Positions 486-51,413 are shown, numbered from the stretch's first letter. The stretch is DNA of 64,000 nucleotides from Clostridia bacterium (GCA_017469465.1 JAFUGH010000018.1:31149-95148), one strand, 5' to 3'. The notes: generated from the letters alone by a model not told the origin. Numbers and translations: made by a program.

Positions 486-510
486 ATGGCGCACAATGTG
501 CGCCGTTATA
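486..510. repeat. Family-A palindromic unit (ATGGCGCACAATGTGCGCC)
   Basis: 17-nt palindrome at 488..504 with an AT flank, lying between the alaS stop and the HIT gene start. Confidence 0.8.
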
Positions 511-511
511 A

Positions 512-2272
512 CTATTTTTCAAGAATTGCTTTAATTCTTCTAATACCTGCTGCAACTCCTTCTTCTTTCACTATTTTAAAATGTCCCATATTTCCTGTTC
601 TTTCAACATGAGGCCCTCCGCATATTTCTTTACTAAAGTCACCGATTGTATATACTTTTACTTTATCTCCATATTTACTTGCAAATAGTCCCATTGCACC
701 AGAAGCCTTTGCATCATCATAAGACATTTCTTCACATGTAACCACCAAATCTCTTTGAATTTGTTCATTTACTATATCTTCTACTTGCTTTAATTGCTCA
801 GGTGTAACTTTTTGCGGATTTGCGAAGTCAAATCTCAATCTTTCTGCCGTAAGGTTTGATCCTTTTTGTGTTGCATGCTCTCCAAGAACAATTTGTAAAG
901 CCTTATGTAATAAGTGAGTAGCTGTATGATATGCTGTTGTTTGTTCACTATGGTCTGCCAAACCGCCTTTAAATTTAGCTTCTGAACCAGCTCTCGAAAG
1001 TTCCTGATGCTTTTTAAACAATTCTTGAAACTCTTCCATATTAATTTCCATGCTTGCTTCTCTAGCTAATTCAGCGGTCATTTCAGGAGGGAAACCAAAT
1101 GTATCATATAGTCTAAATACAACTTGTCCTTCTAATTTTGTTTTTCCTTCTTCTTTGGCTTTCTTCACATTTTTATCAAATTCTTTTTCACCATTTGCTA
1201 GTGTCTTCATAAATTTATTTTTTTCTTCGACAATTACATTAATAATTGTTTCTTTATTCGCTGAAATTTCAGGATACATTTCTTTTGTAATTTTTTCAAA
1301 TGTATCAAGTAAAGTAGTAACATTATCTGGATCAAATTCGATTTTTCTCATATGACGAATTACTCTTCTAAGTAATCTTCTTAACACATAACCTTGTTCT
1401 ACATTACTTGGTCTAACTCCATCAACAATCATAAACATTGATGTCCTTAAGTGATCCGAAATAATTCTCGCACTTTCCATGTTAAAATTGTTCGACAATT
1501 CTTTTATCTTAATGATTTCATCTGCGAATAGTTCCGTGTCATAAACACTGCTTTTTCCTTGAAGTAATCCAATTACTCTTTCTAATCCAAGTCCTGTATC
1601 TACATTTGGATGCTTTAGTGGTTCTAATGTTCCATCTTTCTTTTTGTTATATTGCATAAAAACATTATTCCAAATTTCTAAATATTTACCACAACTACAT
1701 GTAGGGTCACAATGCTCTGAACATTTTTCTTTTCCTGTATCATAAAAAATCTCAGTATCTGGTCCACATGGTCCTGTTTCACCAGCTGGTCCCCACCAAT
1801 TATGTTCTCTAGAGCAATAATAAATTCTTTCTTTTGGAATTCCCATTTCTTCCCAACGTTTTGCAGCCTCTTCATCCCTAGGAATTCCTTCCTCTCCTGC
1901 AAAAACTGTTACAGAAATTTTATTCATATCAAAACCTAATACATCTTTTAAAAATGTATAACTCATTTCAATTGATTCATGCTTAAAATAATCGCCCAGT
2001 GACCAGTTACCTAGCATTTCAAAAAAAGTTAAGTGACTGTTATCACCAACGGAATCAATATCTCCTGTTCTTACACATTTTTGATAATCAGTGAGTCTCT
2101 TACCTTGAGGATGTGGTTCACCTAACAAATAAGGTACTAATGGATGCATTCCAGCAGTTGTGAATAAAACTGTAGGATCATTTTCAGGCACTACTGGAGC
2201 ACTAGGTATTTCTTTATGTCCATGTTCTTTAAAAAATTCTATGTACTTTCTTCTTAGTTCATATGCTTTCAT
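512..2272 (-). CDS. alaS: Alanine--tRNA ligase, short form (catalytic and editing domains, no C-Ala domain)
   Basis: 586 aa. Class II AlaRS N-terminus (FTTAGMHP, FFEMLGNWSLGDYF). Editing-domain HxxxH (HTATHLLH) and CxxxH (CGGPHV) motifs lie near the C-terminus. Confidence 0.88.
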   Translation of the reverse strand: MKAYELRRKYIEFFKEHGHKEIPSAPVVPENDPTVLFTTAGMHPLVPYLLGEPHPQGKRLTDYQKCVRTGDIDSVGDNSHLTFFEMLGNWSLGDYFKHESIEMSYTFLKDVLGFDMNKISVTVFAGEEGIPRDEEAAKRWEEMGIPKERIYYCSREHNWWGPAGETGPCGPDTEIFYDTGKEKCSEHCDPTCSCGKYLEIWNNVFMQYNKKKDGTLEPLKHPNVDTGLGLERVIGLLQGKSSVYDTELFADEIIKIKELSNNFNMESARIISDHLRTSMFMIVDGVRPSNVEQGYVLRRLLRRVIRHMRKIEFDPDNVTTLLDTFEKITKEMYPEISANKETIINVIVEEKNKFMKTLANGEKEFDKNVKKAKEEGKTKLEGQVVFRLYDTFGFPPEMTAELAREASMEINMEEFQELFKKHQELSRAGSEAKFKGGLADHSEQTTAYHTATHLLHKALQIVLGEHATQKGSNLTAERLRFDFANPQKVTPEQLKQVEDIVNEQIQRDLVVTCEEMSYDDAKASGAMGLFASKYGDKVKVYTIGDFSKEICGGPHVERTGNMGHFKIVKEEGVAAGIRRIKAILEK

Positions 2273-2300
2273 ATTAATCCTCCCTTACAATAACGCAATT

Positions 2301-2329
2301 ATTATATACCTTAAAGTTTTATCCGTCAA
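2301..2329 (-). promoter_or_regulatory. Sigma-70-type promoter for alaS
   Basis: On the minus strand: TTGACG, 17-nt spacer, TATAAT, about 25 nt upstream of the alaS start and its GGGAGG RBS. Confidence 0.5.
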
Positions 2330-2342
2330 TTATGTAATTTCA

Positions 2343-2603
2343 TAAATTACAATTTGTCGGTTAGACCATTGAGGACGAAGACGGAGAATTTTGGCTTTTT
2401 CGACCAATAGGGACGTGGTTTTTTCGACCAATAGGGACGGAGGATTTTGGTTTTTTCTTTAAGTAACAAGATTCCAATTTTTGAAAGATGAAAAAACCAA
2501 AATCCTCCGTCCCTATTGGTCGAAAAAACCACGTCCCTATTGGTCGAAAATCCTTCGTCTCCGTCCCAAATGGCCCTCCAAGACCCAGACAAATTGTAAT
2601 TTA
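2343..2603. mobile_element. MITE-like 261-bp palindromic element with 16-bp terminal inverted repeats
   Basis: TIR TAAATTACAATTTGTC at 2343..2358 and its exact complement at 2588..2603. The inner arms have about 62 nt of perfect complementarity. Each arm carries two tandem TTTCGACCAATAGGGACG copies, around a ~33-nt loop. Confidence 0.6.
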
Positions 2604-2744
2604 CATCCAATTATACTTTTTGGCAAACTTTTTCGTCTTTTTAACAATTGTATTTTTTATATCAAAAATTTCGTCACTTGCCATTGTGCCAATAACTCCA
2701 CCTATTACAGCACCAAATATCATTCCTGTCATTAAATTTTTCAT
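2601..2744 (-). CDS. Small glycine-zipper membrane protein, 47 aa (MKNLMTGMIFGAVIGGVIGTMASDE...)
   Basis: ATG at 2744 with AGGAAG 9 nt upstream. Hydrophobic G-rich helix followed by a basic tail. Below the ORF-track size cutoff. Confidence 0.45.
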   Translation of the reverse strand: MKNLMTGMIFGAVIGGVIGTMASDEIFDIKNTIVKKTKKFAKKYNWM

Positions 2745-2792
2745 TTTTCATTCTTCCTTTCTTTTTTATGTTCTTTTATCGTCGTTACCATT

Positions 2793-3122
2793 TCATACAT
2801 TCCGAACCGACAGCAAGAAAAAGCCAAAATATCGTTTTAAGCTTTCTGGTTCAATAAATTTAGTTAAATACGCACCAAAACCACTTCCTATTACACTGGG
2901 AATAAATAATTTTTTTGCAATTTTCTTTTCAACATTTTGATTTTTGATGTGAATCAATACTGCAATAACAGCAGTAGGAATAAAAAAAACTAAATTTGTA
3001 GCTTGTGCAATATGTTGTGGCACTTCCATAAAGTTAACTAATACTAAGATTAAAATACTTCCTCCACCCATTCCAAGTCCTGTTATTATGCCTGAAATAA
3101 TACCAACTAAAATTAATTTCAT
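2793..3122 (-). CDS. Half-size TauE/SafE (TSUP) family membrane protein, second half
   Basis: Start moved to MKLILVG (ATG at 3122), 7 nt after the upstream TAA. GxGGG motif and 4 predicted TM helices. Confidence 0.7.
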   Translation of the reverse strand: MKLILVGIISGIITGLGMGGGSILILVLVNFMEVPQHIAQATNLVFFIPTAVIAVLIHIKNQNVEKKIAKKLFIPSVIGSGFGAYLTKFIEPESLKRYFGFFLLSVRNV

Positions 3123-3129
3123 ACTTATC

Positions 3130-3474
3130 TTACCCTTTAACAATCATTTTTATAGATGCAATAACTAAAAAAATGTCAAAAGTTATCGCAAGCCAAAATT
3201 TAGGAATTCTTTTCATTAATTTTGCGCCAATAAAACCTCCAATGCTTCCACCTATTACTACATTGACTATTATACTTAAATCAAAATAATTATAATTTGC
3301 ATAAAAAATAGAAGCAACTAATACAGCTGGGAATACTGTTATTAATGTTGTTCCACGAGCCTTATATTCATCTAATTTTAAAATACTTGTAAGCGCAGGA
3401 TGAATTAATAAACCACCGCCTGTTCCAAAAAATCCACTAATCAAACCTGCAAAAAGACCTATAACATATGCCAT
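3130..3474 (-). CDS. Half-size TauE/SafE (TSUP) family membrane protein, first half
   Basis: Start moved to MAYVIGL (ATG at 3474, TGGAG RBS). FFGTGGG motif and 4 TM helices. Confidence 0.7.
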   Translation of the reverse strand: MAYVIGLFAGLISGFFGTGGGLLIHPALTSILKLDEYKARGTTLITVFPAVLVASIFYANYNYFDLSIIVNVVIGGSIGGFIGAKLMKRIPKFWLAITFDIFLVIASIKMIVKG

Positions 3475-3576
3475 TGTTAACTCCAAAACAAATTTCAGAT
3501 AAATAGTTTTCAAATAACAAAAAAACTCTAATAATACTATTATCAGAGTTTTTTTCATTTTTATTCAAAATAAGTT

Positions 3577-4839
3577 TCATTTTTTCTTTTTCAATTGTTC
3601 TTCCGTTTCGTCAGGAACATAGTACTTAGTACCAAGCATCTTATCTGGCAAATATTGTTGCTCAACCTCATGATTTGGATAGTCATGTGGATATTTATAA
3701 CCAACGCCATATCCAAAATCTGACATTCCCTCTGCAGGTGCATTTCTAATATGCATTGGAATCGTTCCAGTATCTTTATTTTCAACATCTGACAATGCTT
3801 TATCTATTCCTAAATATGCAGCATTTGATTTAGGACTTCTCGCAACATAAGTTGCTGCATGTGCCAATAATATTCTTGCTTCAGGCATTCCGATTTGATG
3901 AATTCCTTGCATTGCTGCAACGGCAACAACTAAGGCATTGGAATTTGCCATACCAACATCCTCGGAAGCACAAATAACAATTCTTCTTGCCAAAAACATT
4001 GGATCTTCACCTGCATATAGTGCTCTAGCTAAATAAAACAAAACAGCATCCGGATCTCCTCCACGCATAGATTTGATAAATGCGCTAATGTTGTCATAGT
4101 GACTATCTCCATCTTTGTCAAATTGTGCTTTTTTCTTTTGAATACATTCACTTGCTATTTCTTGAGTGATCTCAATTTCTCCAATTGAATTCATGTCCGT
4201 AGTTAATGTCGCAATTTCTAGAGCATTTAATGCAACTCTTACGTCTCCACCTGATAACTCAGCAATATACTTTAAAACAGTATCGTTTACTTTAATATTA
4301 TACATTCCTAAGCCTTTTTCTTTATTTTCAATTGCATTTTTTAAAAGTTGAAAAATATGCTCATTTCCTAGTGGTTCTAATTTAAATACTGTTGAACGAG
4401 AAATTAAAGCCTTATTAACCGAAAAATACGGATTCTCAGTTGTGGCCCCAATTAAAATAACCGTACCGTCTTCTACATATGGCAAAAGAGCATCTTGTTG
4501 AAGTTTGTTAAACCTATGAATTTCATCTATGAATAAAACAACCTTTCCAGAGGGATTTAAAAGCAAATTTTTGGCATCTTCCACTGCACTTTTTATATCT
4601 GATACTCCTGCTGCCACTGCATTTAATTTTTGAAATTTATTTTTGGTAGAGTTGGCAATTACCCTAGCAAGTGACGTTTTTCCACACCCAGGTGGTCCCC
4701 ATAAAATAATGCTAGATAGCCTATCAGCCTTTATCAATCGATATAACATTTTGTCTTTTGATAATATATGTTCTTGCCCAACGTACTCTTCTATCGTCGT
4801 CGGACACATTCTATACGCTAATGGTACATTTTTTTCCAT
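3577..4839 (-). CDS. rarA: Replication-associated recombination protein A (AAA+ ATPase)
   Basis: 420 aa. Walker A GPPGCGKTS, Walker B FIDEIHRF, and the conserved MgsA C-terminal domain. Confidence 0.9.
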   Translation of the reverse strand: MEKNVPLAYRMCPTTIEEYVGQEHILSKDKMLYRLIKADRLSSIILWGPPGCGKTSLARVIANSTKNKFQKLNAVAAGVSDIKSAVEDAKNLLLNPSGKVVLFIDEIHRFNKLQQDALLPYVEDGTVILIGATTENPYFSVNKALISRSTVFKLEPLGNEHIFQLLKNAIENKEKGLGMYNIKVNDTVLKYIAELSGGDVRVALNALEIATLTTDMNSIGEIEITQEIASECIQKKKAQFDKDGDSHYDNISAFIKSMRGGDPDAVLFYLARALYAGEDPMFLARRIVICASEDVGMANSNALVVAVAAMQGIHQIGMPEARILLAHAATYVARSPKSNAAYLGIDKALSDVENKDTGTIPMHIRNAPAEGMSDFGYGVGYKYPHDYPNHEVEQQYLPDKMLGTKYYVPDETEEQLKKKK

Positions 4840-4870
4840 TTATCATTCTCCTTATTTTTTTGTACTAGCA

Positions 4871-4952
4871 AACTATGTTCACCATGGAGCAAGCTGGCTC
4901 CGATACATTCTTCATACTGATGCACTTCGTAGCTGCACACATTGTGCGCCAT
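4871..4952. repeat. Cluster of degenerate family-A units
   Basis: CTATGTTCACCAT, GGAGCAAGCTGGCTCC and CGTAGCTGCACACATTGTGCGCCAT, between the ruvA stop and the rarA start. Confidence 0.6.
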
Positions 4953-4957
4953 ATTCT

Positions 4958-5560
4958 TTACTTCTTTGAAAAATATAGCAACGCTCTTTTAATAATATCT
5001 TCCACTGACATATTGGATGAATCAAATGATGAGACTGCTTTTGTTGCTTCTTTTACAGGATATCCTAATACTTGAAGTGCGCTTACAGCTTCACTTGCAT
5101 TATCATCATTAGCAATTATTTCTGTAAATACAGGATCATTTGATGGAAGAGATTCATCTGTTTTCAATTTATCTTTCAATTCTAATATAATTCTTTGTGC
5201 AGACTTTGCGCCTATGCCAGGTAGTTTTGTCAATTCCTTCACATTATTAGTAATTACTGCTAGTGCAAAACTTGATGGCGTAATATTCGCAAGAATAGAA
5301 TTCGCAGATTTTGCTCCTACTCCACTCACACTAATTAATAATTCGAACATACGGAGTTCTTCCAAGCTATAAAAGCCATATAAACTAATATCATCTTCTC
5401 TTACATGATAATGTGTATAAACCTTTACTTGATCACCAATTTCTCCAAGTTTATTAATGGTTGTAATAGGTGCAAAAACTTTATAACCAATTCCTCCTGC
5501 TTCAATTACAACGTAGTCATTTCCCTTTATTTCCAAACTTCCTTTAATATATGCGTACAT
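4958..5560 (-). CDS. ruvA: Holliday junction branch migration protein RuvA
   Basis: 200 aa. MYAYIKG...GIGYKV N-terminus and two HhH motifs (GVGAKSA, GIGAKSAQRI). Confidence 0.9.
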   Translation of the reverse strand: MYAYIKGSLEIKGNDYVVIEAGGIGYKVFAPITTINKLGEIGDQVKVYTHYHVREDDISLYGFYSLEELRMFELLISVSGVGAKSANSILANITPSSFALAVITNNVKELTKLPGIGAKSAQRIILELKDKLKTDESLPSNDPVFTEIIANDDNASEAVSALQVLGYPVKEATKAVSSFDSSNMSVEDIIKRALLYFSKK

Positions 5561-5781
5561 ATCAAAACTCCTTTATTTAATTTGTATCTTTTTTCTACCC
5601 ATCATCTAGCATAATATAAACGAACGTTCTTGTCAATTATATCGCCAAAAACTTATTCCATTTTTTCATGATACGAGACTACATTTTTTCTTCACTTTTA
5701 ATTATTAAACTGTTACAATGTTGTTGTATGAATGAAAATTTGTGGAATAATAAAACTATTATAATGAGAGGAGTTTTTTAT

Positions 5782-6753
5782 ATGAAAATAGCTTTTTTTG
5801 AAATATCAAATATAGAAAAAGATAAATTTGAGAAGGCATTTCCGAAAGAGGAACTTCAATTTTTTGAAGAAACACTTCAAGATGTCGAAATTCAAAAATA
5901 TATTGAAAGTGATGCAATATGTGTATTTGTTCATTCTGAAGTTAATCAAGAGATACTAGGCAAAATGCCTAATTTAAAGCTAATTGCAACACGTTCTACC
6001 GGTACGGATCATATTAATCTAGATGCTTGTAAAGAAAGAAATATTGAAGTAAAAAATGTTCCATTATATGGAGAAAATACTGTTGCAGAGCATACTTTTG
6101 CATTGATGCTTTCACTATCTAGAAAAATTCATAAGTCGTATGTACGTTCCATCCAAGGAAAATTTACAACAGAAGGACTTCAAGGTTTTGATTTAAAAGA
6201 TAAAACACTTGGAATTATCGGTGGCGGAAGAATCGGTCTTCATGTTGCAAGAATAGCTAGAAGTTTTGGTATGCATGTGAGGGTTTATGATATTCATAAA
6301 GATACTTTTCTTGCAGAACTAATCAATTTTAAATATGTCTCTTTAGATGAATTGCTAGAAACATCTGACATTGTATCATTACATGTACCACTTAATAAAT
6401 ATACAGAACATATGATTAATACAGATTCTCTTATAAAATTTAAAGATGGTTCACTTCTAATTAATACTGCACGAGGAGGTTTAGTAGATACTCCTGCATT
6501 AATTGATGCTTTAAAAAATGGGAAGCTCGCAGGTGCAGGACTTGACGTAATTGAAGGAGAAGAATATTTGATTGAAGAAAATATTTTCAATTCTCCTGTT
6601 GAAAAAGCAGCCAAATTAATTGTTGAAAGTAAACAATTATTAGATAACGAAAATGTTGTTTTAACTCCTCACAATGCTTTTAATAGTGTGGAGGCAGTTA
6701 ATAGAATTATTGATACTTCCATTGATAATATTAAAACGTTCATCGAAAATTGA
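5782..6753 (+). CDS. D-isomer-specific 2-hydroxyacid dehydrogenase
   Basis: Start moved to MKIAFFE (ATG at 5782, GAGAGGAG RBS). NAD-binding GIIGGGRIGLHVARIA and the conserved LINTARG/HNAF motifs. Confidence 0.85.
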   Translation: MKIAFFEISNIEKDKFEKAFPKEELQFFEETLQDVEIQKYIESDAICVFVHSEVNQEILGKMPNLKLIATRSTGTDHINLDACKERNIEVKNVPLYGENTVAEHTFALMLSLSRKIHKSYVRSIQGKFTTEGLQGFDLKDKTLGIIGGGRIGLHVARIARSFGMHVRVYDIHKDTFLAELINFKYVSLDELLETSDIVSLHVPLNKYTEHMINTDSLIKFKDGSLLINTARGGLVDTPALIDALKNGKLAGAGLDVIEGEEYLIEENIFNSPVEKAAKLIVESKQLLDNENVVLTPHNAFNSVEAVNRIIDTSIDNIKTFIEN

Positions 6754-6770
6754 AAAAATTTCATTTACAC

Positions 6771-6872
6771 GCACAGTAGGGACGTCCATTAGTTGTGCAA
6801 CACGAAACATAATGTCTATATTTTACAAGTTATGTTGTCATGTTGCCCAACTAATGGACGTCCCCGCTGTGC
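6771..6872. repeat. Family-B inverted repeat (about 42-nt arms containing GGGACGTCC)
   Basis: GCACAGTAGGGACGTCCATTAGTTGTGCAACA... pairs with ...TGTTGCCCAACTAATGGACGTCCCCGCTGTGC. Lies between convergent genes. Confidence 0.75.
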
Positions 6873-6883
6873 ACAAATCATTT

Positions 6884-7853: not shown

Positions 7854-7975
7854 GAAAATCAAAGATTTTCAATTTTCTTACGTTGCCTTCGGCAACGTAA
7901 GAATGTGCTTTTGTTGTTTCATACGGAAAGTATAACTTTCCTATAAAATAAGAAAAAAGGAGCACTTCGTGCTCC
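7854..7975. repeat. String of four hairpins, including one family-A core
   Basis: GAAAATCAAAGATTTTC (7854..7870), CTTACGTTGCCTTCGGCAACGTAAG (7877..7901), GGAAAGTATAACTTTCC (7925..7941), GGAGCACTTCGTGCTCC (7959..7975). Confidence 0.75.
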
Positions 7976-16868: not shown

Positions 16869-17051
16869 GAAATTTGCACAACGAGGACGTCCGGAATTGC
16901 TGAAAAAGTCTGCCAATGGGTGCCAATGGCATTGATTTTTTGTTTTATGGCGAACACTGTTCGCCACTACGATTGTGACTTTATCAATGCTTCTAGACGT
17001 CCATTAAATGTGAAATTCGCACAATGGGGACGTCCCCATTGTGCGAATTTC
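16869..17051. repeat. Composite repeat: family-B half-sites, one family-A unit and a perfect 40-nt palindrome
   Basis: GAAATTTGCACAACGAGGACGTCC (16869..), ATGGCGAACACTGTTCGCCACTACG (16947..16971), GAAATTCGCACAATGGGGAC|GTCCCCATTGTGCGAATTTC (17012..17051). Confidence 0.8.
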
Positions 17052-20396: not shown

Positions 20397-20431
20397 ATGG
20401 AGCATACTGTGCTCCTCTACAAACGTAGCAT
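20397..20431. repeat. Family-A unit plus a small CTAC/GTAG hairpin
   Basis: ATGGAGCATACTGTGCTCCTCTACAAACGTAGCAT in the rplK-rplA spacer. Confidence 0.8.
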
Positions 20432-20898: not shown

Positions 20899-20955
20899 AT
20901 GGCGAACACTGTTCGCCGCTACAACACATCATTCGTAGCGGAGCACAGTGTGCTC
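20899..20955. repeat. Family-A head-to-head doublet
   Basis: ATGGCGAACACTGTTCGCC-GCTAC-(11 nt)-GTAGC-GGAGCACAGTGTGCTCC, between nusG and the rplK RBS. Confidence 0.85.
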
Positions 20956-20963
20956 CAAAGTTT

Positions 20964-26975: not shown

Positions 26976-27037
26976 ATGGAGCACGTTGTGCTCCTCTACA
27001 AATGATTCTTCCAGTAGAGAAGTACAGCGTACTCCAT
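26976..27037. repeat. Family-A head-to-head doublet
   Basis: ATGGAGCACGTTGTGCTCC-TCTAC-(14 nt)-GTAGA-GAAGTACAGCGTACTCC-AT. Confidence 0.8.
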
Positions 27038-32956: not shown

Positions 32957-33017
32957 CGTAGCTGAGCACAACGTGCTCCATAACACTTTTCTATGGCGCA
33001 CAGTGTGCGCCGCTACG
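32957..33017. repeat. Family-A tail-to-tail doublet
   Basis: CGTAGC-TGAGCACAACGTGCTCC-AT-(11 nt)-AT-GGCGCACAGTGTGCGCC-GCTACG, 9 nt from the rpmJ stop. Confidence 0.85.
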
Positions 33018-36462: not shown

Positions 36463-37131
36463 TTATTTAATTGCATATTTATCATAAATCAACTTTGCTC
36501 TATTAAGTACATCTCCAATAAACTCTTCTTTTACATCAATATTTTCTTCATATGCCTCTACCACACTGATACCTGCTCCATTATTAAAATAATATTTACA
36601 TGAGCCACCAACAGTTGTTGAAACACTTTCATATAAAATTAAATTTCCATTTTCATCGTAATAATAAACCATGTTTTCAATAAAGTCTGTATCTGGAATT
36701 ATCTCAATAAAATTTGGTTTTACATTAATGGTAACGGATAGTTCATTGATTTTAAAATATTTCATAAAATCTTTTGCTAAATCACTAACCAAATCTATCG
36801 AAAGATTTTCACGGAAATTATTGATTTCTGCTTCCCCACTGACTATCATCTGAACTTGTTCGTCTATTTTTTTGATTTTCTCTTCTTTTGAAACGAATGA
36901 TCCATTATCCCCCGAGTCTTCTTTTAAAGATTCATTTTGTTCTCCTGATTTTATATCTATTATTTCTCCAATAATCTCGCCGGAATTTTCTTCTATCATT
37001 ACTTCACTAGCTACATCATTATCTAATGTCTCATCCTCTACTTTTGTTCCATTCATTAGTAAAAAACCACATGTAAAACCAATTACTGCAACCACTAAAA
37101 TTGTTATAATAAGTTTCATAAAAGATTTCAT
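36463..37131 (-). CDS. Hypothetical membrane-anchored protein, 222 aa
   Basis: N-terminal TM helix, acidic linker and a beta-rich C-terminal domain. Its AGGAG RBS overlaps the end of the upstream ORF. Confidence 0.7.
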   Translation of the reverse strand: MKSFMKLIITILVVAVIGFTCGFLLMNGTKVEDETLDNDVASEVMIEENSGEIIGEIIDIKSGEQNESLKEDSGDNGSFVSKEEKIKKIDEQVQMIVSGEAEINNFRENLSIDLVSDLAKDFMKYFKINELSVTINVKPNFIEIIPDTDFIENMVYYYDENGNLILYESVSTTVGGSCKYYFNNGAGISVVEAYEENIDVKEEFIGDVLNRAKLIYDKYAIK

Positions 37132-37143
37132 AAAAATCAGCTC

Positions 37144-37629
37144 CTATTTCTTTATAAATATTTTTTTAATTTTAAGCCATAATCTGAAAATGAAAGATTT
37201 TTCTTTAACTTTAACTGGCAAATTTACTGCTTCCTTCTTTGAAATATCATTTAGATTGTTTGGGGTAACATTATTTCTTTGCGGTACTTCTGAAAAATTA
37301 TCTGATTCATTTCCATTTGATTTAAAAATATGATACTTTTCTTGAAATCGCCTTTCATTTTCCGTCAATGTCTGCATAACTCTATTTTTTTCTTCTTCTG
37401 ATTGGCACCAATAATTCATTTTCAGAATCGCAAGTATGACACGTGTTTCATATACAACATTTTGATCCTTGATAGACCTATTAGGATTAATCTTTACCTC
37501 ATAATTATCTAATCTAGCGTCATAAAACATACGTCTAAATTTAAGTGGCACTTTCTCCACATATTCTTTTGGTAAATATTTTAAAATTTCATCAACTTCT
37601 GTACATGCTCTTCGCATCACTTTTGTCAT
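37144..37629 (-). CDS. Hypothetical protein, 161 aa
   Basis: ATG with a GGAGG RBS. Conserved-looking N-terminal half (EILKYLPKEYVEKVP...YW) and a basic amphipathic C-terminus. Confidence 0.7.
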   Translation of the reverse strand: MTKVMRRACTEVDEILKYLPKEYVEKVPLKFRRMFYDARLDNYEVKINPNRSIKDQNVVYETRVILAILKMNYWCQSEEEKNRVMQTLTENERRFQEKYHIFKSNGNESDNFSEVPQRNNVTPNNLNDISKKEAVNLPVKVKEKSFIFRLWLKIKKIFIKK

Positions 37630-38924: not shown

Positions 38925-40196
38925 TTATATTCTTCTATTCATTCCTGGCAATAATTCTTCCTCTTTTTCCTCTACTACTTCCTCTTCTATTCCATTCTCC
39001 AATGCGTCTCTTAATTGCAATGTCACACTTGCAATTTCTGCATTTTTTCTCATTGTATCATCTATCATTTCATTATTATCAATGCTACTAGTAAGAACAT
39101 TTTTTCCAGTGGTATTATCATCATGCACTGTTTCGTCATCACGTATTTCTCCTGTTAATTGTTCTTCAAATTCATCTGATATATCTTCTATTAGCTGTTG
39201 AGAAGAATCAGAAATTATCTCATTATTTTCCTCTCCTATTTGTTCTTCATTTGATTCCTGTATTATTTCTTCCGCTACATCTTGTATTGGATCATATGGC
39301 ACACCAGCCTCATTCTCTTCATTCAATTCCTCATTAGTCATAGCATCTTGTGCTTTTTCATGAGCAGTCTCAAGCTTTTCTACTATACCACTTATTTCTT
39401 CTTCTTTTAGCATTCCTTTTTCAGCTAATTGTAAAGCTTCTTTTGCAGTAACTACTATGGTTGTATTTTTAGAAAATTCAGATGACACATGTTTCTTTAT
39501 CGCATCAATATCTTTCTGCTTTGTATCACTTTGTTTTTCATCAACTTCAGCCACTTCATTTTCAGCATTAGGTATTGTATCTTCCTCATTTTGAAACAAT
39601 ACATAAGCCTGATCCAAATCTAATTCCGTTGGCAAATCATTTTCGTACTTGACTATTACTTTTTGAAATTCTTCTTTCGAATTTCTTAATTTATACCAAT
39701 CATCCGGTTTATACTGAAAAAAATCTTCTGCAAGTCCTGGACTTTTTACTATCGTCACGGAGTCAGATATTTTTTCCATAAATTCTTCTCTTGTCATTTC
39801 TTTGCCTGCCATTGAACTTCTACTTCCATCATACGGAAGAACCACCACACCTGAAACTACTTCCCAATTATTAAACGTTTTCATTTCTCCATTTACAGTA
39901 TTCATTTCCTCAGACAAATCACTTTGACTATCTACTTTTTGTTGAGCAAGTTCTTCTTCTTGTTTTTTCCTCTCCTCTTCATTTTCTTGAGCTTGTTCAA
40001 AATCGGCACCCGAATTTTGAGCTGTTTCAATAAGCATCTCTTCTAACGCTTGCTCTAATTCTTCTTTTTCATCTTCTAGTTTTGCAATGCTAGCAAAATC
40101 AACAAATCCATCATTCGCTTGCCTTAATAATTCTATTTCTTTATCAATATTTTTAATTTTATCCTCAATTTCTTCTCTTGAGGTTGCTCTATCCAT
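38925..40196 (-). CDS. Hypothetical highly acidic protein, 423 aa
   Basis: Start moved to the ATG at 40196 (AAGGAGG RBS). Very E/D-rich with a short central non-acidic segment. No motif recognised. Confidence 0.65.
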   Translation of the reverse strand: MDRATSREEIEDKIKNIDKEIELLRQANDGFVDFASIAKLEDEKEELEQALEEMLIETAQNSGADFEQAQENEEERKKQEEELAQQKVDSQSDLSEEMNTVNGEMKTFNNWEVVSGVVVLPYDGSRSSMAGKEMTREEFMEKISDSVTIVKSPGLAEDFFQYKPDDWYKLRNSKEEFQKVIVKYENDLPTELDLDQAYVLFQNEEDTIPNAENEVAEVDEKQSDTKQKDIDAIKKHVSSEFSKNTTIVVTAKEALQLAEKGMLKEEEISGIVEKLETAHEKAQDAMTNEELNEENEAGVPYDPIQDVAEEIIQESNEEQIGEENNEIISDSSQQLIEDISDEFEEQLTGEIRDDETVHDDNTTGKNVLTSSIDNNEMIDDTMRKNAEIASVTLQLRDALENGIEEEVVEEKEEELLPGMNRRI

Positions 40197-40296
40197 CACC
40201 CTTTTCCTCCTTTGTTTTCTATATTTTTTATTATATCATTTTGCGTTTTTTAGAGCAATAAAAAAACACCCTATTTAAAATAGAGTGTTTTTTATA

Positions 40297-43041: not shown

Positions 43042-43137
43042 AGAACTGTGTATTCACCGCTACGGCTGTTTCATGCGTAGCGGAGCACAGTGTGCTCCAA
43101 TTCAATTTTCTCATAGTGAACGATGTTCTCCGCTATG
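43042..43137. repeat. Three family-A units (one intact, two degenerate)
   Basis: GAACTGTGTATTCACC-GCTACG-(11 nt)-CGTAGC-GGAGCACAGTGTGCTCC-AA...AT-AGTGAACGATGTTCTCC-GCTATG. Fills the rplF-rplR spacer. Confidence 0.8.
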
Positions 43138-43139
43138 AA

Positions 43140-44247: not shown

Positions 44248-44339
44248 AACTACGAATTGATATATACAATGTTCGTAGGTGAGCACATTGTGCTCCATCA
44301 TGTTTTATTTTGCTGTGGAGCACACTGTGCTCCGCTACA
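44248..44339. repeat. Family-A tail-to-tail doublet plus a CTACGAA/TTCGTAG hairpin
   Basis: CGTAGG-TGAGCACATTGTGCTCC-AT-(18 nt)-GGAGCACACTGTGCTCC-GCTACA. Confidence 0.85.
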
Positions 44340-44352
44340 ATTTTTGGTTCAA

Positions 44353-44538: not shown

Positions 44539-44550
44539 GATTTTCCTCCT

Positions 44551-45090: not shown

Positions 45091-45108
45091 TTATGATTAC
45101 CTCCTTTC

Positions 45109-45429
45109 CTATTTAATTTCCTCTCCACATTTGCTACAAACTCTAACTTTTGTACCATCTTTCTTTATTTGAACTTTCGTTCTAACACCTTTACCACATT
45201 TTGAGCAGAATACATTTGCTTTGCAAGCATTGATTGCAACCTCAGCTTTTACAATTCCGCCTGCTTCTCCAGCTCTTTTAGGTTTAGTGTGTTTTGTTCT
45301 AACATTTACACCTTCTACAACTACTTTTGAATCTTTTGGTAATACTTGAAGAACTTTACCCTTTTTACCTTTATCGGCACCAGAGTTAATCATTACTGTA
45401 TCACCTTTTTTGATGTGTAGATTATTCAT
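45109..45429 (-). CDS. rplX: 50S ribosomal protein L24 with a C-terminal CxxC...CxxC
   Basis: 106 aa. KOW motif (IKKGDTVMINSGADKGKKGKV) and a C-terminal CSKCGK...CSKCGE. Confidence 0.95.
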   Translation of the reverse strand: MNNLHIKKGDTVMINSGADKGKKGKVLQVLPKDSKVVVEGVNVRTKHTKPKRAGEAGGIVKAEVAINACKANVFCSKCGKGVRTKVQIKKDGTKVRVCSKCGEEIK

Positions 45430-45484
45430 TTATTTTACACCTACCTTTTCTCTTTTCTATATAACAAGAATATTTATCATATTC

Positions 45485-45853
45485 TTATAAAACTTCTGGA
45501 GCCAAAGAGACGATTTTCATGTACTCTTTATCTCTTAATTCTCTCGCAACAGGTCCAAATATACGAGTACCTCTTGGAGTTTTGTCTTCCTTTATAATAA
45601 CGGCTGCATTTTCATCAAATCTGATATGTGATCCATCAGGTCTATGAATACCTTTTTTACTTCTAACGATAACAGCCTTAACAACGTCACCTTTTTTTAC
45701 CATACCTGCAGGAGCAGCGCTTTTAACAGAGGCAACGATAACATCACCAATGTTGGCAAATTTTCTATAAGAACCACCAAGGCATCTGATACACATTAAC
45801 TCTTTAGCACCTGTATTGTCGGCAACTTTTAATATTGTTTGTTGTTGTATCAT
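45485..45853 (-). CDS. rplN: 50S ribosomal protein L14
   Basis: Start moved to MIQQQTIL (ATG at 45853, AAGGAG RBS). Confidence 0.97.
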
Positions 45854-45937
45854 TTTAGTTTCTCCTTTCAATTGAGAAGCAAGAATAGCATCATATTCAC
45901 TATCTCATTACACTACTCAATAAATTTTTTATTTTCT

Positions 45938-45961
45938 ATGGAGCACGCTGTGCTCCGCTAC
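45938..45961. repeat. Single family-A unit
   Basis: ATGGAGCACGCTGTGCTCCGCTAC. Confidence 0.85.
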
Positions 45962-45989
45962 ATTATTTGTTAAGCAAAATTCTTTAACA

Positions 45990-46188
45990 CAATTAAAACT
46001 TTATTTCCACGAACGCATCAAAAATGGTGCATTGCAATATCGTTCTTGCATTCCTAAAAGCGAAGCAAAATCGTTAGATTGCGGAATTTTGGATTGGCTG
46101 AGGCGCGGAGGCGTACATAGGTACGTTGAGCACCGAAGCCATGACAAACATTTCGCAAGATGATGATTTTCATTCGCTTCCCAAAACA
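45990..46188 (-). other. GC-rich, hairpin-rich non-coding insert between rpsQ and rplN (possible structured RNA or decayed element)
   Basis: 13-bp interrupted stem 46058..46072 / 46165..46179 encloses the CGTAC-ATAG-GTACG hairpin (46112..46125) and GAGGCGCGGAGGCG. Composition differs from the flanks. Confidence 0.4.
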
Positions 46189-46446
46189 TTATTTTGCTTT
46201 CTCAACGATACTTTCCACTCTCCATCTCTTATCCTTCGATAGAGGTCTCGTCTCCATAACTCTAACTGTATCGCCAATTCCACATTCATTGTTTTCGTCA
46301 TGTGCTTTAACTTTTAAAGTTCTTTTCATCATTTTACCATACAATGGATGTTTTACTCTTGTTTCAACAGCAACAACTACTGTCTTGTCCATTTTGTCAC
46401 TTATTACTTTTCCAGTTCTTGTTTTTCTAAGTGCTCTTTCTGACAT
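46189..46446 (-). CDS. rpsQ: 30S ribosomal protein S17
   Basis: 85 aa, conserved S17 sequence. Confidence 0.97.
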
Positions 46447-46491
46447 TTTCCTTTTCTCCTTTCTTCAGGAATCAATTAATTCTTGTATTGA

Positions 46492-46608
46492 TGGAGCACA
46501 TTGTCCCGTGTATGCTGACACCATAATCGGCACAGCCTCAACGGTCTCATATATGCTCCGCTACGAAGCCACTTTACTATTTCGTAGCGTCGAACAGTGT
46601 TCACCATC
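46492..46608. repeat. Family-A head-to-head doublet whose first palindrome is split by about 50 nt
   Basis: ATGGAGCACATTGT[~50 nt]TGCTCC-GCTACG-(17 nt)-CGTAGC-GTCGAACAGTGTTCACC-AT. Confidence 0.75.
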
Positions 46609-46614
46609 ATTTTT

Positions 46615-46821
46615 TTATTCAGCTGAAGCTTCAGCAATTTCTCTTTCTCTTAAGATTGTTTTAATTTTTGCGATGTCTCTTTTTGTATTTCTGATTTTCA
46701 TCGGATTATCTAGTCCATTTGTAGCTAATTGAAATCTTAATTTAAATAATTCAGATTTTAATTCGCTTAATTCTTTTTCTAAATCCGATGAAGACTTTTC
46801 TCTAATTTCTTTAACCTTCAT
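46615..46821 (-). CDS. rpmC: 50S ribosomal protein L29
   Basis: Start moved to [10 protein letters not shown] (68 aa). The longer ORF-track version overlaps rplP. Confidence 0.93.
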
Positions 46822-47251
46822 CGTCTTCACCACCTTCGTTATTAGTAGCAGCAATGAATTTAACTTTAATTGGAAGTTTATGACTTGCAAGTCTGAATGC
46901 TTCTCTAGCAATTTCTTCTGTAACGCCTTCCATTTCAAATAAAACTCTACCTGGTTTAACAACTGCTACATAGTATTCTACACTACCTTTTCCGCTACCC
47001 ATACGAGTTTCAGCAGGCTTTTTAGTGATTGGCTTGTCTGGGAATATTTTAATCCAAACTTTACCACCTCTTTTAATGAAACGAGTCATGGCAATTCTGG
47101 CTGCTTCAATTTGATTTGAAGTAATCCAACCAGCTTCTAATGCTTGAAGTCCATATTGTCCATATGTGATTTCAGTTCCTCTTGTAGCCTTACCTCTATT
47201 TCTACCTTTTTGCATTTTTCTAAATTTAGTTCTTTTTGGCATTAATGGCAT
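46811..47251 (-). CDS. rplP: 50S ribosomal protein L16
   Basis: 146 aa, conserved L16 sequence. Confidence 0.97.
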
Positions 47252-47907
47252 TATTTTCTACCTCCTTCTACGTTTTTAGTAGGAAGTACCTCACCTTTAT
47301 AAATCCAAACCTTAATACCGATTTTTCCATATGTTGTATCTGCTTCTGCAAATCCATAATCAATATCAGCTCTTAATGTTTGTAGTGGAATTGTACCCTC
47401 TCTATAAAATTCGCTTCTAGCGATTTCAGCTCCACCAAGTCTACCTGAGCAAGCTGTTTTAATACCTTTAGCTCCAGCTTTCATTGCTTTAGCCATACAT
47501 TGTTTCATTGCTTTTCTATAAGAAATTCTTCTTTCCAATTGAGAAGCAATGTTTTCTGCAACTAATTGTGCATCAATATCAGTATTCTTAACTTCTGTAA
47601 TATTAATGTTTACGTCTTTTTTAATTTTCTTAGCAAGATCAGCTCTTACTTTATTAATGTTTTCACCATTTTTTCCAAGTGCAATACCTGGTTTTGCAGT
47701 GTTAACATTTACTCTAATCATATTTGCTTTTCTTTCAATTTCAATTCTTGAAATTCCAGCAACATATAATTTGTTTTTAATAAATTCTCTTATTTTATAA
47801 TCTTCAACTAGATTATCAGCAAAATCTTTTTTGCTTGCATACCATCTAGAATCCCAATCTTTAATAATACCAACTCTTAATCCATGAGGATCCATTTTTT
47901 GTCCCAT
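47251..47907 (-). CDS. rpsC: 30S ribosomal protein S3
   Basis: 218 aa, KH and S3-C domains. Confidence 0.97.
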
Positions 47908-47927
47908 TTTTTACTTCCTCCTTTCTC

Positions 47928-48263
47928 TTATTCTCTTTCTTTTAATACAACTTCAATGTGTGAAGTTCTTTTTCTAATTCTATTCGCTCTACCTTGTGTA
48001 GCAGCTCTTATTCTCTTCATTGTTGGACCTTGATTTGCATAAATTTCAGCAACATATAATTTGCTTCTATCCATGCTAAAATTGTTTTCAGCATTAGCAA
48101 TTGCTGATTTTAAAACTTTTTCAACAAGTGGAGATGCTGCTTTAGGTGTAAATTTTAATATAGCTAGTGCCTCTTGAACATCTTTGCCTCTAATTAAATC
48201 GATAACAATTTTAACTTTCATGGCTGATATTCTAGCATATTTATAACTCGCTCTTGCTTCCAT
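47928..48263 (-). CDS. rplV: 50S ribosomal protein L22
   Basis: 111 aa, conserved L22 sequence. Confidence 0.97.
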
Positions 48264-48293
48264 GTCGCGATTCTCCTTCCATCTTCATTAATT

Positions 48294-48572
48294 TTATTTC
48301 TTTTTCGTTGTTTTATCTCCAGCGTGACCTTTAAAAGTTCTTGTTGGAGCAAATTCACCTAATTTATGACCTATCATTTCGTCAGATATATATATTGGAA
48401 CATGTTTTCTTCCATCATGTACCGCGATTGTATGTCCAACCATTTGAGGGAATATTGTAGAAGCTCTTGACCAAGTTTTTAAAACATCTTTTTTATTCTC
48501 TTCGTTCATTTTTTCTATTCTAGCAAGTAATTTAGCATCTACATATGGACCTTTTTTAATTGATCTAGCCAT
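48294..48572 (-). CDS. rpsS: 30S ribosomal protein S19
   Basis: 92 aa, conserved S19 sequence. Confidence 0.97.
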
Positions 48573-48588
48573 TTAACTTTTCCTCCTT

Positions 48589-49422
48589 CTATTTAGAATT
48601 TCTTCTCTTAACGATAAACTTGTTACTAGCTTTTTTCTTATTTCTAGTCTTATATCCAAGAGCTGGTTTACCCCAAGGAGTAACAGGTCCTGGTCTACCA
48701 ACTGGTGATTTACCTTCACCACCACCATGAGGGTGATCATTAGGATTCATTACAGAACCTCTAACTTCTGGTCTATGACCTAACCATCTGCTCTTACCTG
48801 CTTTACCAAGTTTAATGTTTTCATGATCAGAGTTACCTACTTCACCAATAACAGCTCTGCAGTTAACACTTACAAGTCTCATTTCTCCAGAAGGAAGTCT
48901 TACGTGAGCGTATTTATCCTCTCTAGCCATAAGTTGAGCACTATTACCAGCACTTCTTACCATTTGAGCACCTTTACCAGGTTTTAATTCAATACAGTAA
49001 ATTAATGTACCAACAGGAATATTGCTAATTGGTAAGCAGTTACCTGGTTTAATATCGGCATTTGGTCCTGACATAACTTTGTCATTAACTTTTAGTCCTT
49101 TAGGTGCTATTATATATGCTTTTTCTCCATCTTCATATTGAAGTAAAGCAATATTTGCACTTCTATTTGGATCATATTCAATAGCAACAACTGTTGCTGG
49201 AACATCATCTTTTCTTCTTTTAAAATCTATAATTCTATATTTTCTTCTAGATCCACCACCTTGATGTCTAACTGTGATTCTACCATATGAATTTCTACCT
49301 GCATGTTTCTTTAAACTTGTTGTCAATGATCTTTCAGGTTTGTTTTTTGTAATTTCTTCAAAAGTAGATACAGACATATTTCTTCTTGATGGTGTGGTTG
49401 GTTGATATTGTTTAATACCCAT
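48589..49422 (-). CDS. rplB: 50S ribosomal protein L2
   Basis: 277 aa, conserved L2 sequence. Confidence 0.97.
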
Positions 49423-49517
49423 TTTTATTATCTCCTTTTAATTTATTTTGTTTTTGGCTAACTTTGCAGATTCTTGTTATTGGGTTGTATAACAATCATC
49501 TCTACATTTTAGCTTAA

Positions 49518-49569
49518 TTCGTAGTAGCGAACTGTGTTCGCCAAGGAGCACATAGTGCTCCTCTACGAA
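49518..49569. repeat. Family-A tail-to-tail doublet, abutting
   Basis: TTCGTAG-TAGCGAACTGTGTTCGCC-AA-GGAGCACATAGTGCTCC-TCTACGAA. The outer heads are complementary. Confidence 0.85.
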
Positions 49570-49581
49570 TAAATTCGCTTC

Positions 49582-49929
49582 TTAAGCACCAAACTCCTCG
49601 ATAGAAGTCTTATATTTTTTCGCAGAAATTGTCTTTTCTTTTCCGCCTTTTTCTAAATATTTCATATCAGAAGGATTTGTATCTATTGTAACAATAGCTT
49701 TTTTCCAATCTGATGTCGTTCCACTATGAACACCTTGTCTCTTTGGTTTTCCTTTCACATTGATAGTTGAAACATTTACAACTTTAACGCCGAATAGTTT
49801 TTCAACTGCATTTCTAATATCAATTTTAGTAGCTTTTTTAGCAACTTTGAATGTGTACTTTCCTTCGTTCATAGCATAATTACTTTTTTCAGTAATGATA
49901 GGTTTGATTATGATATCTTCAGCAACCAT
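49582..49929 (-). CDS. rplW: 50S ribosomal protein L23
   Basis: 115 aa. Conserved L23 core with a short C-terminal extension. Confidence 0.95.
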   Translation of the reverse strand: MVAEDIIIKPIITEKSNYAMNEGKYTFKVAKKATKIDIRNAVEKLFGVKVVNVSTINVKGKPKRQGVHSGTTSDWKKAIVTIDTNPSDMKYLEKGGKEKTISAKKYKTSIEEFGA

Positions 49930-50549
49930 TATGCGTACACCTCCTCAATTTTAGCTACAGCATCTTTAGTTACAACTAATGTGTCATATTTTAAGATGTC
50001 ATAAGTATTAATTGTATTTACTAAAGCAGTTTTAACATTTGGAATGTTTCTAGCTGAAGCTTCAACATTTATATTTTTATCTGAAATAACAACTAGAGCT
50101 TTTGAAACTTTAATATTTTCTAGAACTTTAGCCATATTTTTGGTTTTAATTTCATCAAAGTTTAATGAATCTAAAACAACAATGCTGTTTTCATTAACTT
50201 TTGATGTTAAAGCAGATTTAAGAGCAAGTCTCTTAACTTTCTTATTTAATGTATATTTGAATGATCTTGGTTTTGGTCCTAATGCTATACCACCTTTAAT
50301 CCATTGTGGAGCTCTAATGCTACCTTGTCTAGCACGACCTGTACCTTTTTGTTTCCAAGGTTTCTTTCCGCCGCCTCTAACTTCGCTACGAGTTTTAGTA
50401 GATGCAGTACCTTGTCTTTGATTAGCTAAATAATTAAGAACTACATCATGCATAACACTTTCATTTACTTCAACAGCAAAAATGCTATCTGCAAGTTCTA
50501 TATCGCCAACCTTTTTACCTTCCATGTTTAATAATTCAACTTTAGGCAT
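49929..50549 (-). CDS. rplD: 50S ribosomal protein L4
   Basis: 206 aa. [19 protein letters not shown]. Confidence 0.97.
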
Positions 50550-50567
50550 TTACTTTTCCTCCTTCCA

Positions 50568-51218
50568 TTATTTAGCGCTCTTAGCTACAGCAGTTCTAGC
50601 AGCATCTTTAATTCTTACTAAAGATTTCTTATATCCTGGAACAGAACCTTTAATTAAGATAACGTTCTTATCCATATCAACTTTCACTACTTGTAGGTTT
50701 TGAACTGTAATAGTTTCTTTACCTGTTTGTCCTGGTAATTTCTTACCTGGGAATACTCTTCCTGGAGAAGATGTAGGTCCCATAGAACCTGGTCTTCTAT
50801 GATACATACTACCATGTCCTTTTGGTCCAATGTGTTGACCATGTCTCTTAATAACACCTTGGAAACCTTTTCCTTTAGAAGTTCCTTGAACATCAACTAA
50901 TTCTCCAGCTTCAAAAATATCAGCTTTAATTTCATCTCCAACATTATAAGAATCAATATTATCAATTCTTAACTCTTTAATATATTTTTTGTAAGCAATT
51001 CCTGCTTTATCAAATATACCTTTCATTGGTTTATTTACATGTTTTTCTTTTACTTCTCCTGTAGCAACTTGGATTGCATTGTATCCATCTGTTTCAACTG
51101 TTTTCTTTGCGATAACAACGCAAGGCTCAACTTCTACAACTGTAACTGGAATAACTAAACCGTTTTCATCAAAAATTTGTGTCATTCCTAATTTTTTACC
51201 GTAAATTCCTTTTTTCAT
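50568..51218 (-). CDS. rplC: 50S ribosomal protein L3
   Basis: Start moved to [14 protein letters not shown] (ATG at 51218, AAGGAGGT RBS). Confidence 0.97.
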
Positions 51219-51253
51219 TTTTAAAATACCTCCTTGGTTATTGGTTCTTTTTT

Positions 51254-51413
51254 GTAGCAACGAACATACATGATACTGTTTGAATAAGAGTGAAATACAG
51301 TATCAACATACACAGTAACGTTCGCCATGTTATGCTCCCTTTAAGAACATGACCTCAATTCCTATACTGCTATTTTAGAAAATCATCTATGGTAAACACT
51401 GTTCACCATTACG
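51254..51413. repeat. Two family-A units, the first with an expanded loop
   Basis: GTAGC-AACGAAC[~54 nt containing hairpin GATACTGT/ACAGTATC]GTTCGCC-AT (51254..51328), and ATGGTAAACACTGTTCACCATTACG (51389..51413). Confidence 0.75.

Follow-up and report, generated by a model that had tools for sequence, protein, structure and literature searches.

GTAG-headed palindromes of the REP/REPIN type in intergenic spacers of a Clostridia-like genome, with the same repeat found in and beside RAYT transposase genes of other genomes

What are the short palindromes that recur along a 64,000-nucleotide stretch of a Clostridia bacterium (GCA_017469465.1, JAFUGH010000018.1:31149-95148; hereafter the window), and how did they come to lie there? 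A first-pass annotation, made from the sequence alone, had described a dense family of GTAG-headed 17-nt palindromes at positions 486-51413, and likened it to repetitive extragenic palindromic (REP) sequences, bacterial interspersed mosaic elements (BIMEs) and REPINs (REP doublets forming hairpins). We hold with good confidence that the window repeats are indeed REP/BIME-type elements of the GTAG super-family, spread by a REP-associated tyrosine transposase (RAYT, of the HUH/Y1 kind) and settled in intergenic spacers where they are tolerated. Directly observed are the anatomy of the repeats, their non-random placement, their absence from close relatives and the presence of the same repeat in or beside RAYT genes elsewhere.

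The window contains 19 matches to GTAGNGGMGMACANTGTKCKCC with at most 2 mismatches, compared with a mean of 0 in 100 dinucleotide shuffles; likewise, the 17-nt core with at most 3 mismatches is found at 19 sites versus 0.47 expected. Read locus by locus, this amounts to 21 units at 14 loci (Table 1), counting the headless stem at 7959-7975, where roughly 22 units had been described. A unit consists of (C/T)GTAG, one base, the 17-nt palindrome and then A(T/A), often with an A-rich tail, and the window-type unit sequence is GTAGC-GGAGCACAGTGTGCTCC-AT. The core forms a G+C-rich stem of 7-8 bp around a loop of 1-3 nt. As the first-pass annotation had noticed, its arms change together: three stem types, GGAGCAC, GGCGAAC and GGCGCAC, are found in the window units, with both arms covarying. 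There is exactly one head per unit, 1 nt from the stem, and the base preceding GTAG is C or T in all window units. Fifteen units have the GTAG head, while degenerate units show GTAAT or ATAGC, and the window has 16 perfect GTAG-headed hairpins.

The units are arranged as six singles, three head-to-head doublets, four tail-to-tail doublets and the one headless, terminator-like hairpin. Every locus and arrangement named at the first pass is present, and the sites at 483-509, 4929-4950, 20399-20420, 43077-43136 and 51391-51412 were added or confirmed within the same range; the left unit of the doublet 46493-46605, however, is not intact, with its stem halves lying ~55 nt apart. Part of the stretch that splits this unit (46493-46564) shows homology to the S17 leader in a related contig, L124; the unit may have arisen when an insertion broke up a REP, or by recombination with a native hairpin. 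Predicted folding energies range from -9 to -13 kcal/mol for singles (z -2.6 to -4.8) and from -27 to -36 kcal/mol for doublets with intact units. Among the three tail-to-tail doublets built of intact units, whose structures are long or paired hairpins, 32958-33016 and 44275-44338 each fold as one long hairpin, as REPINs do; the fourth tail-to-tail doublet (43077-43136), which has a degenerate partner, folds at merely -16.3 kcal/mol.

Among the conditions that would point to conserved terminators or processing sites instead of mobile elements, the first-pass annotation had named identical hairpin positions in distant relatives. Seven related contigs with 72-94.5% nucleotide identity to the window were fetched via cluster mates of window proteins. 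They cover S10-L2 (L133, 94.5%), L2-S17 (L134 and L135, 92-93%), the whole ribosomal-protein operon (L124, 21 kb, 88-91%), the alaS region (L132, L126 and L128; ~79-82% for L126 and L128, with the AlaS protein 90-95% identical) and mutS-RarA (L136, 21 kb, 72-77%). The REP core, at up to 3 mismatches, occurs zero times in L124, L126, L128, L132, L133, L134/L135 and L136, and no perfect GTAG-headed hairpin of whatever sequence is found in L124, L126, L128 or L132.

Spacer-by-spacer alignment reveals presence/absence polymorphism at orthologous sites: the flanks match, and the REP is in the window alone, in the spacers alaS-HIT, L36-S13, L6-L18, S14-S8, L29-S17, L23-L2 and S10-L3. The 483-509 unit is missing from the alaS-HIT spacer of L132 and from L126 and L128. 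The 43077-43136 doublet is missing from L124, and a same-strain contig, L121, carries the same L6-L18 doublet as the window. The 46493-46605 doublet is not in L134 or L135, and the L124 alignment reaches its 3' part only. In place of the 49521-49566 doublet, the L23-L2 spacer of L133 and L124 has another insert, which is MITE-like (MITE, miniature inverted-repeat transposable element); similarly, the S10-L3 spacer of L124 has another insert of ~70 nt at the point of window unit 51391-51412. Given that the orthologous spacers of relatives have no REPs, we conclude that the units are not conserved terminators or processing sites. Gain in the window lineage is also more parsimonious than loss in all the other lineages. 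A relict REP family proper to the REP-free relatives (motif ACACAGTAGTGT) was considered separately and rejected, as it has merely two copies.

These comparisons bear on a second possibility, namely that a RAYT formerly spread the palindromes but has since been lost here, leaving a relic population in decay, with hairpins that are now neutral or mildly useful. Consistent with this, no RAYT or Y1 gene is found in the 64 kb window by tblastn with four RAYT or Y1 queries, in line with the first-pass annotation; degenerate units occur at 27014-27035, 43115-43136 and 51391-51412, in addition to the split unit at 46493-46564; and REPIN decay following RAYT loss has been modelled (bioRxiv 10.1101/2021.07.10.451892). 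Nevertheless, 8 of the 19 cores equal the consensus with 0 mismatches, and a window of 64 kb is expected to miss a single-copy gene elsewhere in the genome. Since the closest relatives are without any unit, recent gain is favoured over an old decaying population, and we regard the relic explanation as unlikely.

The placement of the repeats has to be seen against the host and its genes. The window has ~32% G+C and a strongly negative GC skew, and its genes are nearly all on the minus strand. It encodes a short alaS, mutS, mutL, the NusG-L11-L1-L10 cluster, a PASTA kinase, rsmB and the S10-spc-alpha ribosomal-protein operon with secY. Rfam detects only the L10 leader and the 'S10-Clostridia' leader over the window, with no match at the REPs, and the relatives encode SLH-domain proteins. 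On the basis of this gene content, the Rfam leaders and the SLH-domain proteins, the host is a Clostridia-like member of the Bacillota, which agrees with the AT-rich, Bacillota-like genome first described. Exact matches of the window proteins are metagenome-derived only (NCBI, ENA and Logan assemblies).

All 14 loci are non-coding, as had been claimed, and lie between co-directional genes without overlap with an open reading frame (ORF), while only ~9.5% of the window is non-coding (P ~5e-15). Eight lie within the S10-spc-alpha operon and two within the NusG-L11-L1 cluster. Nine of 13 start 2-15 nt past the upstream stop codon, versus 2.8 expected under uniform placement within each spacer (P 9.5e-5). 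Selection against insertion near the downstream ribosome-binding sites or leaders can account for this closeness to stop codons, as could a target preference. REPs at most ~15 nt from a stop codon have been reported in E. coli to lower the expression of the upstream gene via ribosome stalling; hence, the nine stop-proximal units are worth attention.

The position of all units in transcribed spacers, mostly near stop codons, and the stability of their hairpins might also suggest that the host has selected them as RNA or transcription signals (terminators, attenuators or sites of RNase processing), alike through shared function, the more so as the related stem at 7959-7975 is followed by a T-run and resembles a real terminator. 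On the gene strand, however, the sequence 3' of the hairpins is A-rich and not T-rich, and thus the units are not intrinsic terminators. Besides 7959-7975, only 504-488 and 51409-51389 are flagged as terminator-like on that strand, both weakly. A sense-strand terminator reading was accordingly rejected for the A-rich tails, the sole clear hairpin with a T-run being the headless 7959-7975, which is probably a true intrinsic terminator and whose membership in the family is doubtful. In addition, units are located within a ribosomal-protein operon, orthologous spacers lack them in relatives up to 94.5% identical, termination needs neither a GTAG head nor inverted doublets, and the same 22-mer is found across genomes of widely different base composition (25% to 66% G+C). 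Host-selected signals are, in our judgement, a very improbable origin for the family.

A scan for the exact pattern of the repeat, with one genome per species, returned at least 119 loci. The matches listed include Oscillospiraceae, Ruminococcus flavefaciens, R. bromii, Lachnospiraceae, Clostridium argentinense, Geosporobacter and Bulleidia, together with a small number in Anaerolineaceae and Coriobacteriaceae; among them, the loci with the 22-mer span the above range of G+C content. Because at least 119 loci across these taxa carry it, the 22-mer is not a peculiarity of the window genome: the family is widespread in Clostridia and relatives. For isolated units in the other loci, the GTAG strand is the G-rich strand, i.e. 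the lagging-strand template, in 21 of 29 cases, and the same holds for 5 of the 6 isolated window units (strands read by eye). This bias is as expected for a single-strand HUH enzyme, although the signal is weak. With respect to gene direction, isolated units in the other loci show no bias (14 same, 12 opposite).

Among 2.9 million viral contigs, merely 47 stretches carry the repeat and none of these has a RAYT; phage carriage was hence rejected. One 20-kb contig classed as viral (L143 and L187, IMGVR_UViG_3300047491_000652, 32% G+C) has 13 exact REPs, all on one strand; it encodes no RAYT, and blastn shows no relation to the window. The evenly spaced matches of L086 were also considered as a CRISPR array, which was rejected on the ground that the whole 64-65-nt unit repeats; positions 2781-3146 of L086 are a tandem array of such REP-bearing units, a BIME-like cluster.

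The link to a transposase comes from other genomes with the same repeat, where it lies inside or adjoins RAYT genes (L005, L034, L098, L137 and L140). In L005, L034 and L098, it is inside HUH...Y genes of 160-180 amino acids with the motifs MPNHIH...YI..NP. Pfam Y1_Tnp (PF01797) exceeds its cutoff for L005 (E 1e-5, 25.9 bits versus 23) and stays below threshold for L034 (E 0.0086, 16.6 bits). The best NCBIfam model for the repeat-bearing genes is NF047646, REP-associated tyrosine transposase, at 56.7-68.8 bits. A 15-member profile compared with solved structures has a sole match, E. coli TnpAREP (4ER8, E 6e-10). The clade is large, with 1,858 clusters at E <=1e-5 from a single query and at least 7,977 clusters at E <=1e-10 from the profile, and some of its Ruminococcus members are already annotated as 'REP element-mobilizing transposase RayT'. 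Thus, the statement that such systems are best known from Proteobacteria holds for the literature but not for the sequence databases, in which RAYT genes are abundant in Clostridia.

These genes were picked up through the repeat itself, which they contain in frame. Ahead of the HUH motif the internal REP is read as the peptide VGAxxxRP and behind it as GRxxxAPT, and both represent the same GTAGG-hairpin on opposite strands. Both peptides are found in 213 of 228 sampled RAYT proteins (P0022-P0249), and 135 of the 213 peptide pairs are compatible with identical inverted copies, versus 13-20 for shuffled pairings. At the DNA level, the internal pairs were read at L005 509-720, L137 10106-10299 and L140 704-912. 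In P0110, the first internal copy is in another reading frame and gives the peptide GEQCSP; the constraint therefore acts on DNA. L137 (31% G+C) has its RAYT between ackA and recG, with two internal REPs and with extragenic REPs that have the same head. In C. argentinense (L033, ~5870-6100), there is an inverted doublet of the window's head and tail type (GTAGC...AT), the ~170-nt spacer of which is a decayed RAYT segment from between the internal REPs, with HUH turned into PNYIC and the remaining gene gone. This suggests that the intragenic REP pair can itself be copied as a REPIN.

It should also be noted that the RAYT gene almost abuts a downstream housekeeping gene in L137 (10001-12512), L138, L139 and L005 (353-2880). 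The downstream neighbour is recG in three metagenomes, with ackA upstream, and a thrS-like ORF in L005. Such a location beside housekeeping genes is a stable chromosomal context, unlike that of an insertion sequence (IS).

Mobilisation by another single-strand transposase (IS200/IS605 TnpA or IStron-type), or a role as double-stranded palindromic protein-binding sites, seems to us hardly credible: the elements are hairpin-based, IS200-type enzymes are common in Clostridia (PMC6006769) and L040 holds an IS200-like gene with a helix-turn-helix tail, yet the repeat lies inside or beside RAYT-type and not IS200-type genes, the IS200 NCBIfam model reaches merely E 0.009 on the RAYT proteins, and compensatory changes that preserve pairing rather than sequence argue against a sequence-specific double-stranded operator.

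Several observations weigh against a RAYT-driven origin of the window repeats. No RAYT or other Y1 gene is encoded in the 64 kb, and no transposition event was directly observed. The absence of units in relatives could also stem from loss in those lineages, and the strand bias is based on small numbers. The RAYT proteins score under the curated (equivalog) cutoff of NF047646, which is 80 bits, and we treat the clostridial proteins as a putative divergent RAYT clade and not as NF047646 equivalogs. Lastly, the internal REP has G after GTAG in 221 of 221 sampled RAYTs in which the upstream motif was found, and its tail is CG or CA in the DNA examined and not AT, whereas in window units GTAG is followed by C, A or T and the tail is AT. 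The GTAGC-type head of the window is in no sampled RAYT. Because of these differences in head and tail, the cognate enzyme, if present, may be a variant outside the sampled RAYTs. The contigs of three RAYT homologues picked by their low-G+C amino-acid composition (P0093, P0070 and P0110) include none from the window-strain samples SRR12529337, SRR12529370, ERZ28019184 and ERZ28653759.

On balance, we still favour spread by a RAYT, and infer that such an enzyme is now, or was formerly, present in the window genome. The REP hairpins would be non-autonomous, and the RAYT (TnpAREP) would recognise a hairpin with its 5' GTAG 'guide' in single-stranded DNA, then cut and rejoin beside the hairpin so that singles and inverted doublets (REPINs) spread into intergenic DNA. 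The binding, cleavage and joining steps are borrowed from TnpAREP biochemistry: the enzymes of E. coli, Stenotrophomonas and Marinomonas bind the folded hairpin and GTAG on single-stranded DNA, cleave at CT or CA beside the hairpin and join strands (PMC8266576). By analogy, and as speculation, the CA at the 3' border of the window units (the last stem C plus the tail A) is a candidate cleavage site. The window family would belong to the RAYT clade that appears very common in Clostridia-like Bacillota, and most likely came or expanded after the window lineage split from its nearest sampled relatives. Its units would have settled in spacers of co-directional genes, mostly near stop codons and including the ribosomal-protein operon, where they would be co-transcribed in polycistronic mRNAs. 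There, they probably have a secondary role as stable RNA hairpins, with effects on the decay of the mRNA or on how translation of the upstream gene terminates.

A bolder version of this scheme can be offered only tentatively, and we think it rather doubtful. The REP-RAYT system would have been recently acquired, probably horizontally, and would have burst into the spacers of essential operons; a RAYT with its in-frame inverted REP pair around HUH would be a substrate and possibly the master copy, and the L033 doublet a mobilised internal segment. If true, recent acquisition and burst would conflict with the view of REP-RAYT systems as slow, ancient and strictly vertical.

How, then, does the window family compare with known systems? 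Every REP/BIME/REPIN feature that could be tested is present: a short G+C-rich palindrome, a one-sided head, extragenic location, inverted doublets and site polymorphism. This anatomy fits GTAG REPs and REPINs as defined in the literature (PMC3733652, PMC6006769, PMC8266576), and, along with the spacer polymorphism and the Y1-transposase link in other genomes, it supports the REP/BIME/REPIN-like interpretation of the first-pass annotation. The proteobacterial GTAG REPs, BIMEs and REPINs (E. coli REP Y/Z with TnpAREP; Pseudomonas and Stenotrophomonas REPINs with RAYTs) are alike in having the 5' GTAG at the hairpin foot, coexisting stem subfamilies, strictly extragenic units and singles next to both types of inverted doublet, as well as an association, here seen in other genomes, with an HUH/Y1 enzyme related to 4ER8. 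The S. maltophilia REP in particular (23 nt, a perfect 8-bp stem and a 3-nt loop; PMC8266576) has nearly the size and shape of the window units. In contrast to the proteobacterial REPs, the window family has a low-G+C, Clostridia-like Bacillota host and sites in a ribosomal-protein operon, and its units have one base between GTAG and the stem and a conserved A(T/A) tail. Moreover, REPIN-RAYT systems have been portrayed as long-lived and passed on vertically (bioRxiv 10.1101/2021.07.10.451892), whereas the window family is missing from close relatives.

In TnpAREP subclass 2.4 of Quentin et al. 2018, which is RAYT group 4 of Bertels et al. 2017 and is scattered across many phyla, REPs are reported to be inserted within tnpAREP genes (PMC6006769). 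Intragenic REPs are thus shared with the clostridial RAYTs, a likeness by description and not by phylogenetic placement. The subclass 2.4 insertions are 'generally between HuH and Y' and 'highly variable' (PMC6006769), while the clostridial RAYTs have two inverted copies that flank HUH at conserved positions in the great majority of sampled proteins; the conserved inverted pair somewhat exceeds the published description. With IS200/IS605, the family shares HUH/Y1 chemistry, subterminal hairpins, a 5' guide tetranucleotide and single-stranded action on the lagging-strand template (PMC6006769, PMC8266576). Unlike IS200/IS605, the window hairpins enclose no transposase, the units are 22-27 nt long and are not IS ends, and the associated proteins in other genomes fit the IS200 model far less well than the RAYT model.

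To our knowledge, REP/REPIN-RAYT systems have been studied almost solely in Proteobacteria and Cyanobacteria. The GTAG REP survey of Di Nocera 2013 covers Proteobacteria, Cyanobacteria, Chloroflexi and the Planctomycetes-Verrucomicrobia-Chlamydiae (PVC) group and never mentions Firmicutes (PMC3733652). Bertels et al. name Clostridia for RAYT group 1 only (PMC5581495), a group that corresponds to a subclass without identified REP-like sequences (PMC6006769). Hence, the kind of element is already known, and the literature examined says hardly anything about its spread in Bacillota.

The window also contains repeats of other kinds. A second, unrelated family of inverted repeats is found at 2397-2550, 6771-6872 and 58985-59088, each with 32 nt between arms of 61, 35 and 36 nt, respectively, that are 100%, 89% and 100% complementary and share a TAGGGAC/GTCCCTA motif; their predicted hairpins have -129, -62 and -67 kcal/mol. 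A MITE-like element of ~125 nt lies at 46057-46179 (S17-L14) in the window and in the L23-L2 spacer of relatives (L124 1998-2121, L133 ~2908-3075), and an assembly join in L134, in which S17 is directly followed by L2, seems to be due to its copies. A hairpin element of ~60-70 nt is located in the S10-L3 spacer at 51262-51323 in the window and, in the opposite orientation and at another position, at 174-235 in L124; it is not in L133.

With regard to neighbouring genes, two family-less ORFs (38925-40199, 424 amino acids, and 36463-37629) and a CCA-adding-enzyme-like gene lie in the secY-adk interval of the ribosomal-protein operon, and the gene content of this stretch is unlike that of L124. 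Pfam has no match for the 424-amino-acid ORF 38925-40199 or for the ORF 46160-46732, which overlaps two REP loci.

Table 1. Repeat units and doublets in the window, with strand and genomic setting
Element	Position	Strand	Setting and remarks
Single, degenerate heads both sides ('double-foot'), GTAAT-GGCGCACAATGTGCGCC-GTTAT	483-509		2 nt past alaS stop codon
Single, GTAGC-TGCACACATTGTGCGCC-AT	4929-4950	+	7 nt past stop of RuvA-like gene (4958-5560)
Headless REP-like stem, GGAGCAC/GTGCTCC	7959-7975	-	TTTTTT next on gene strand
Single, GTAGT-GGCGAACAGTGTTCGCC-AT	16949-16970	-	Upstream of mutS; -13.2 kcal/mol
Single, GTAGA-GGAGCACAGTATGCTCC-AT	20399-20420	-	L11-L1 spacer
Head-to-head doublet	20901-20956	20901-20922 -, 20935-20956 +	NusG-L11 spacer, 7 nt past stop codon
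Head-to-head doublet	26978-27035	26978-26999 -, degenerate 27014-27035 +	-31.3 kcal/mol, z -6.8
Tail-to-tail doublet, REPIN form	32958-33016		L36-S13 spacer, 10 nt past stop; -32.0 kcal/mol; not in L124
Tail-to-tail doublet, second unit degenerate	43077-43136		L6-L18 spacer, 3 nt past stop codon
Tail-to-tail doublet	44275-44338		S14-S8 spacer; -36.2 kcal/mol, z -9.2; not in L124
Single	45940-45961	-	S17-L14 spacer; not in L124
Head-to-head doublet	46493-46605	Left 46493-46564 - split, right 46584-46605 + intact	L29-S17 spacer
Tail-to-tail doublet, 2-nt spacer	49521-49566		L23-L2 spacer; -27.0 kcal/mol; not in L133, L124
Single, degenerate, GTAAT-GGTGAACAGTGTTTACC-AT	51391-51412	-	S10-L3 spacer; not in L133

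The finding is mainly of specialist interest, for a near-identical repeat across disparate Bacillota, for an in-frame inverted REP pair in a RAYT clade and for an apparently recent invasion that includes the ribosomal-protein operon. A nearly invariant 22-nt REP is spread across gut and rumen Bacillota of very different G+C content and is linked to a very large clade of RAYTs. When clostridial metagenome-assembled genomes are annotated, such hairpins should be masked as repeats and not labelled as terminators or small RNAs. The window and its REP-free relatives offer a natural before-and-after comparison for the speed of a REP invasion, the sites at which it is tolerated and its effects on the expression of flanking genes.

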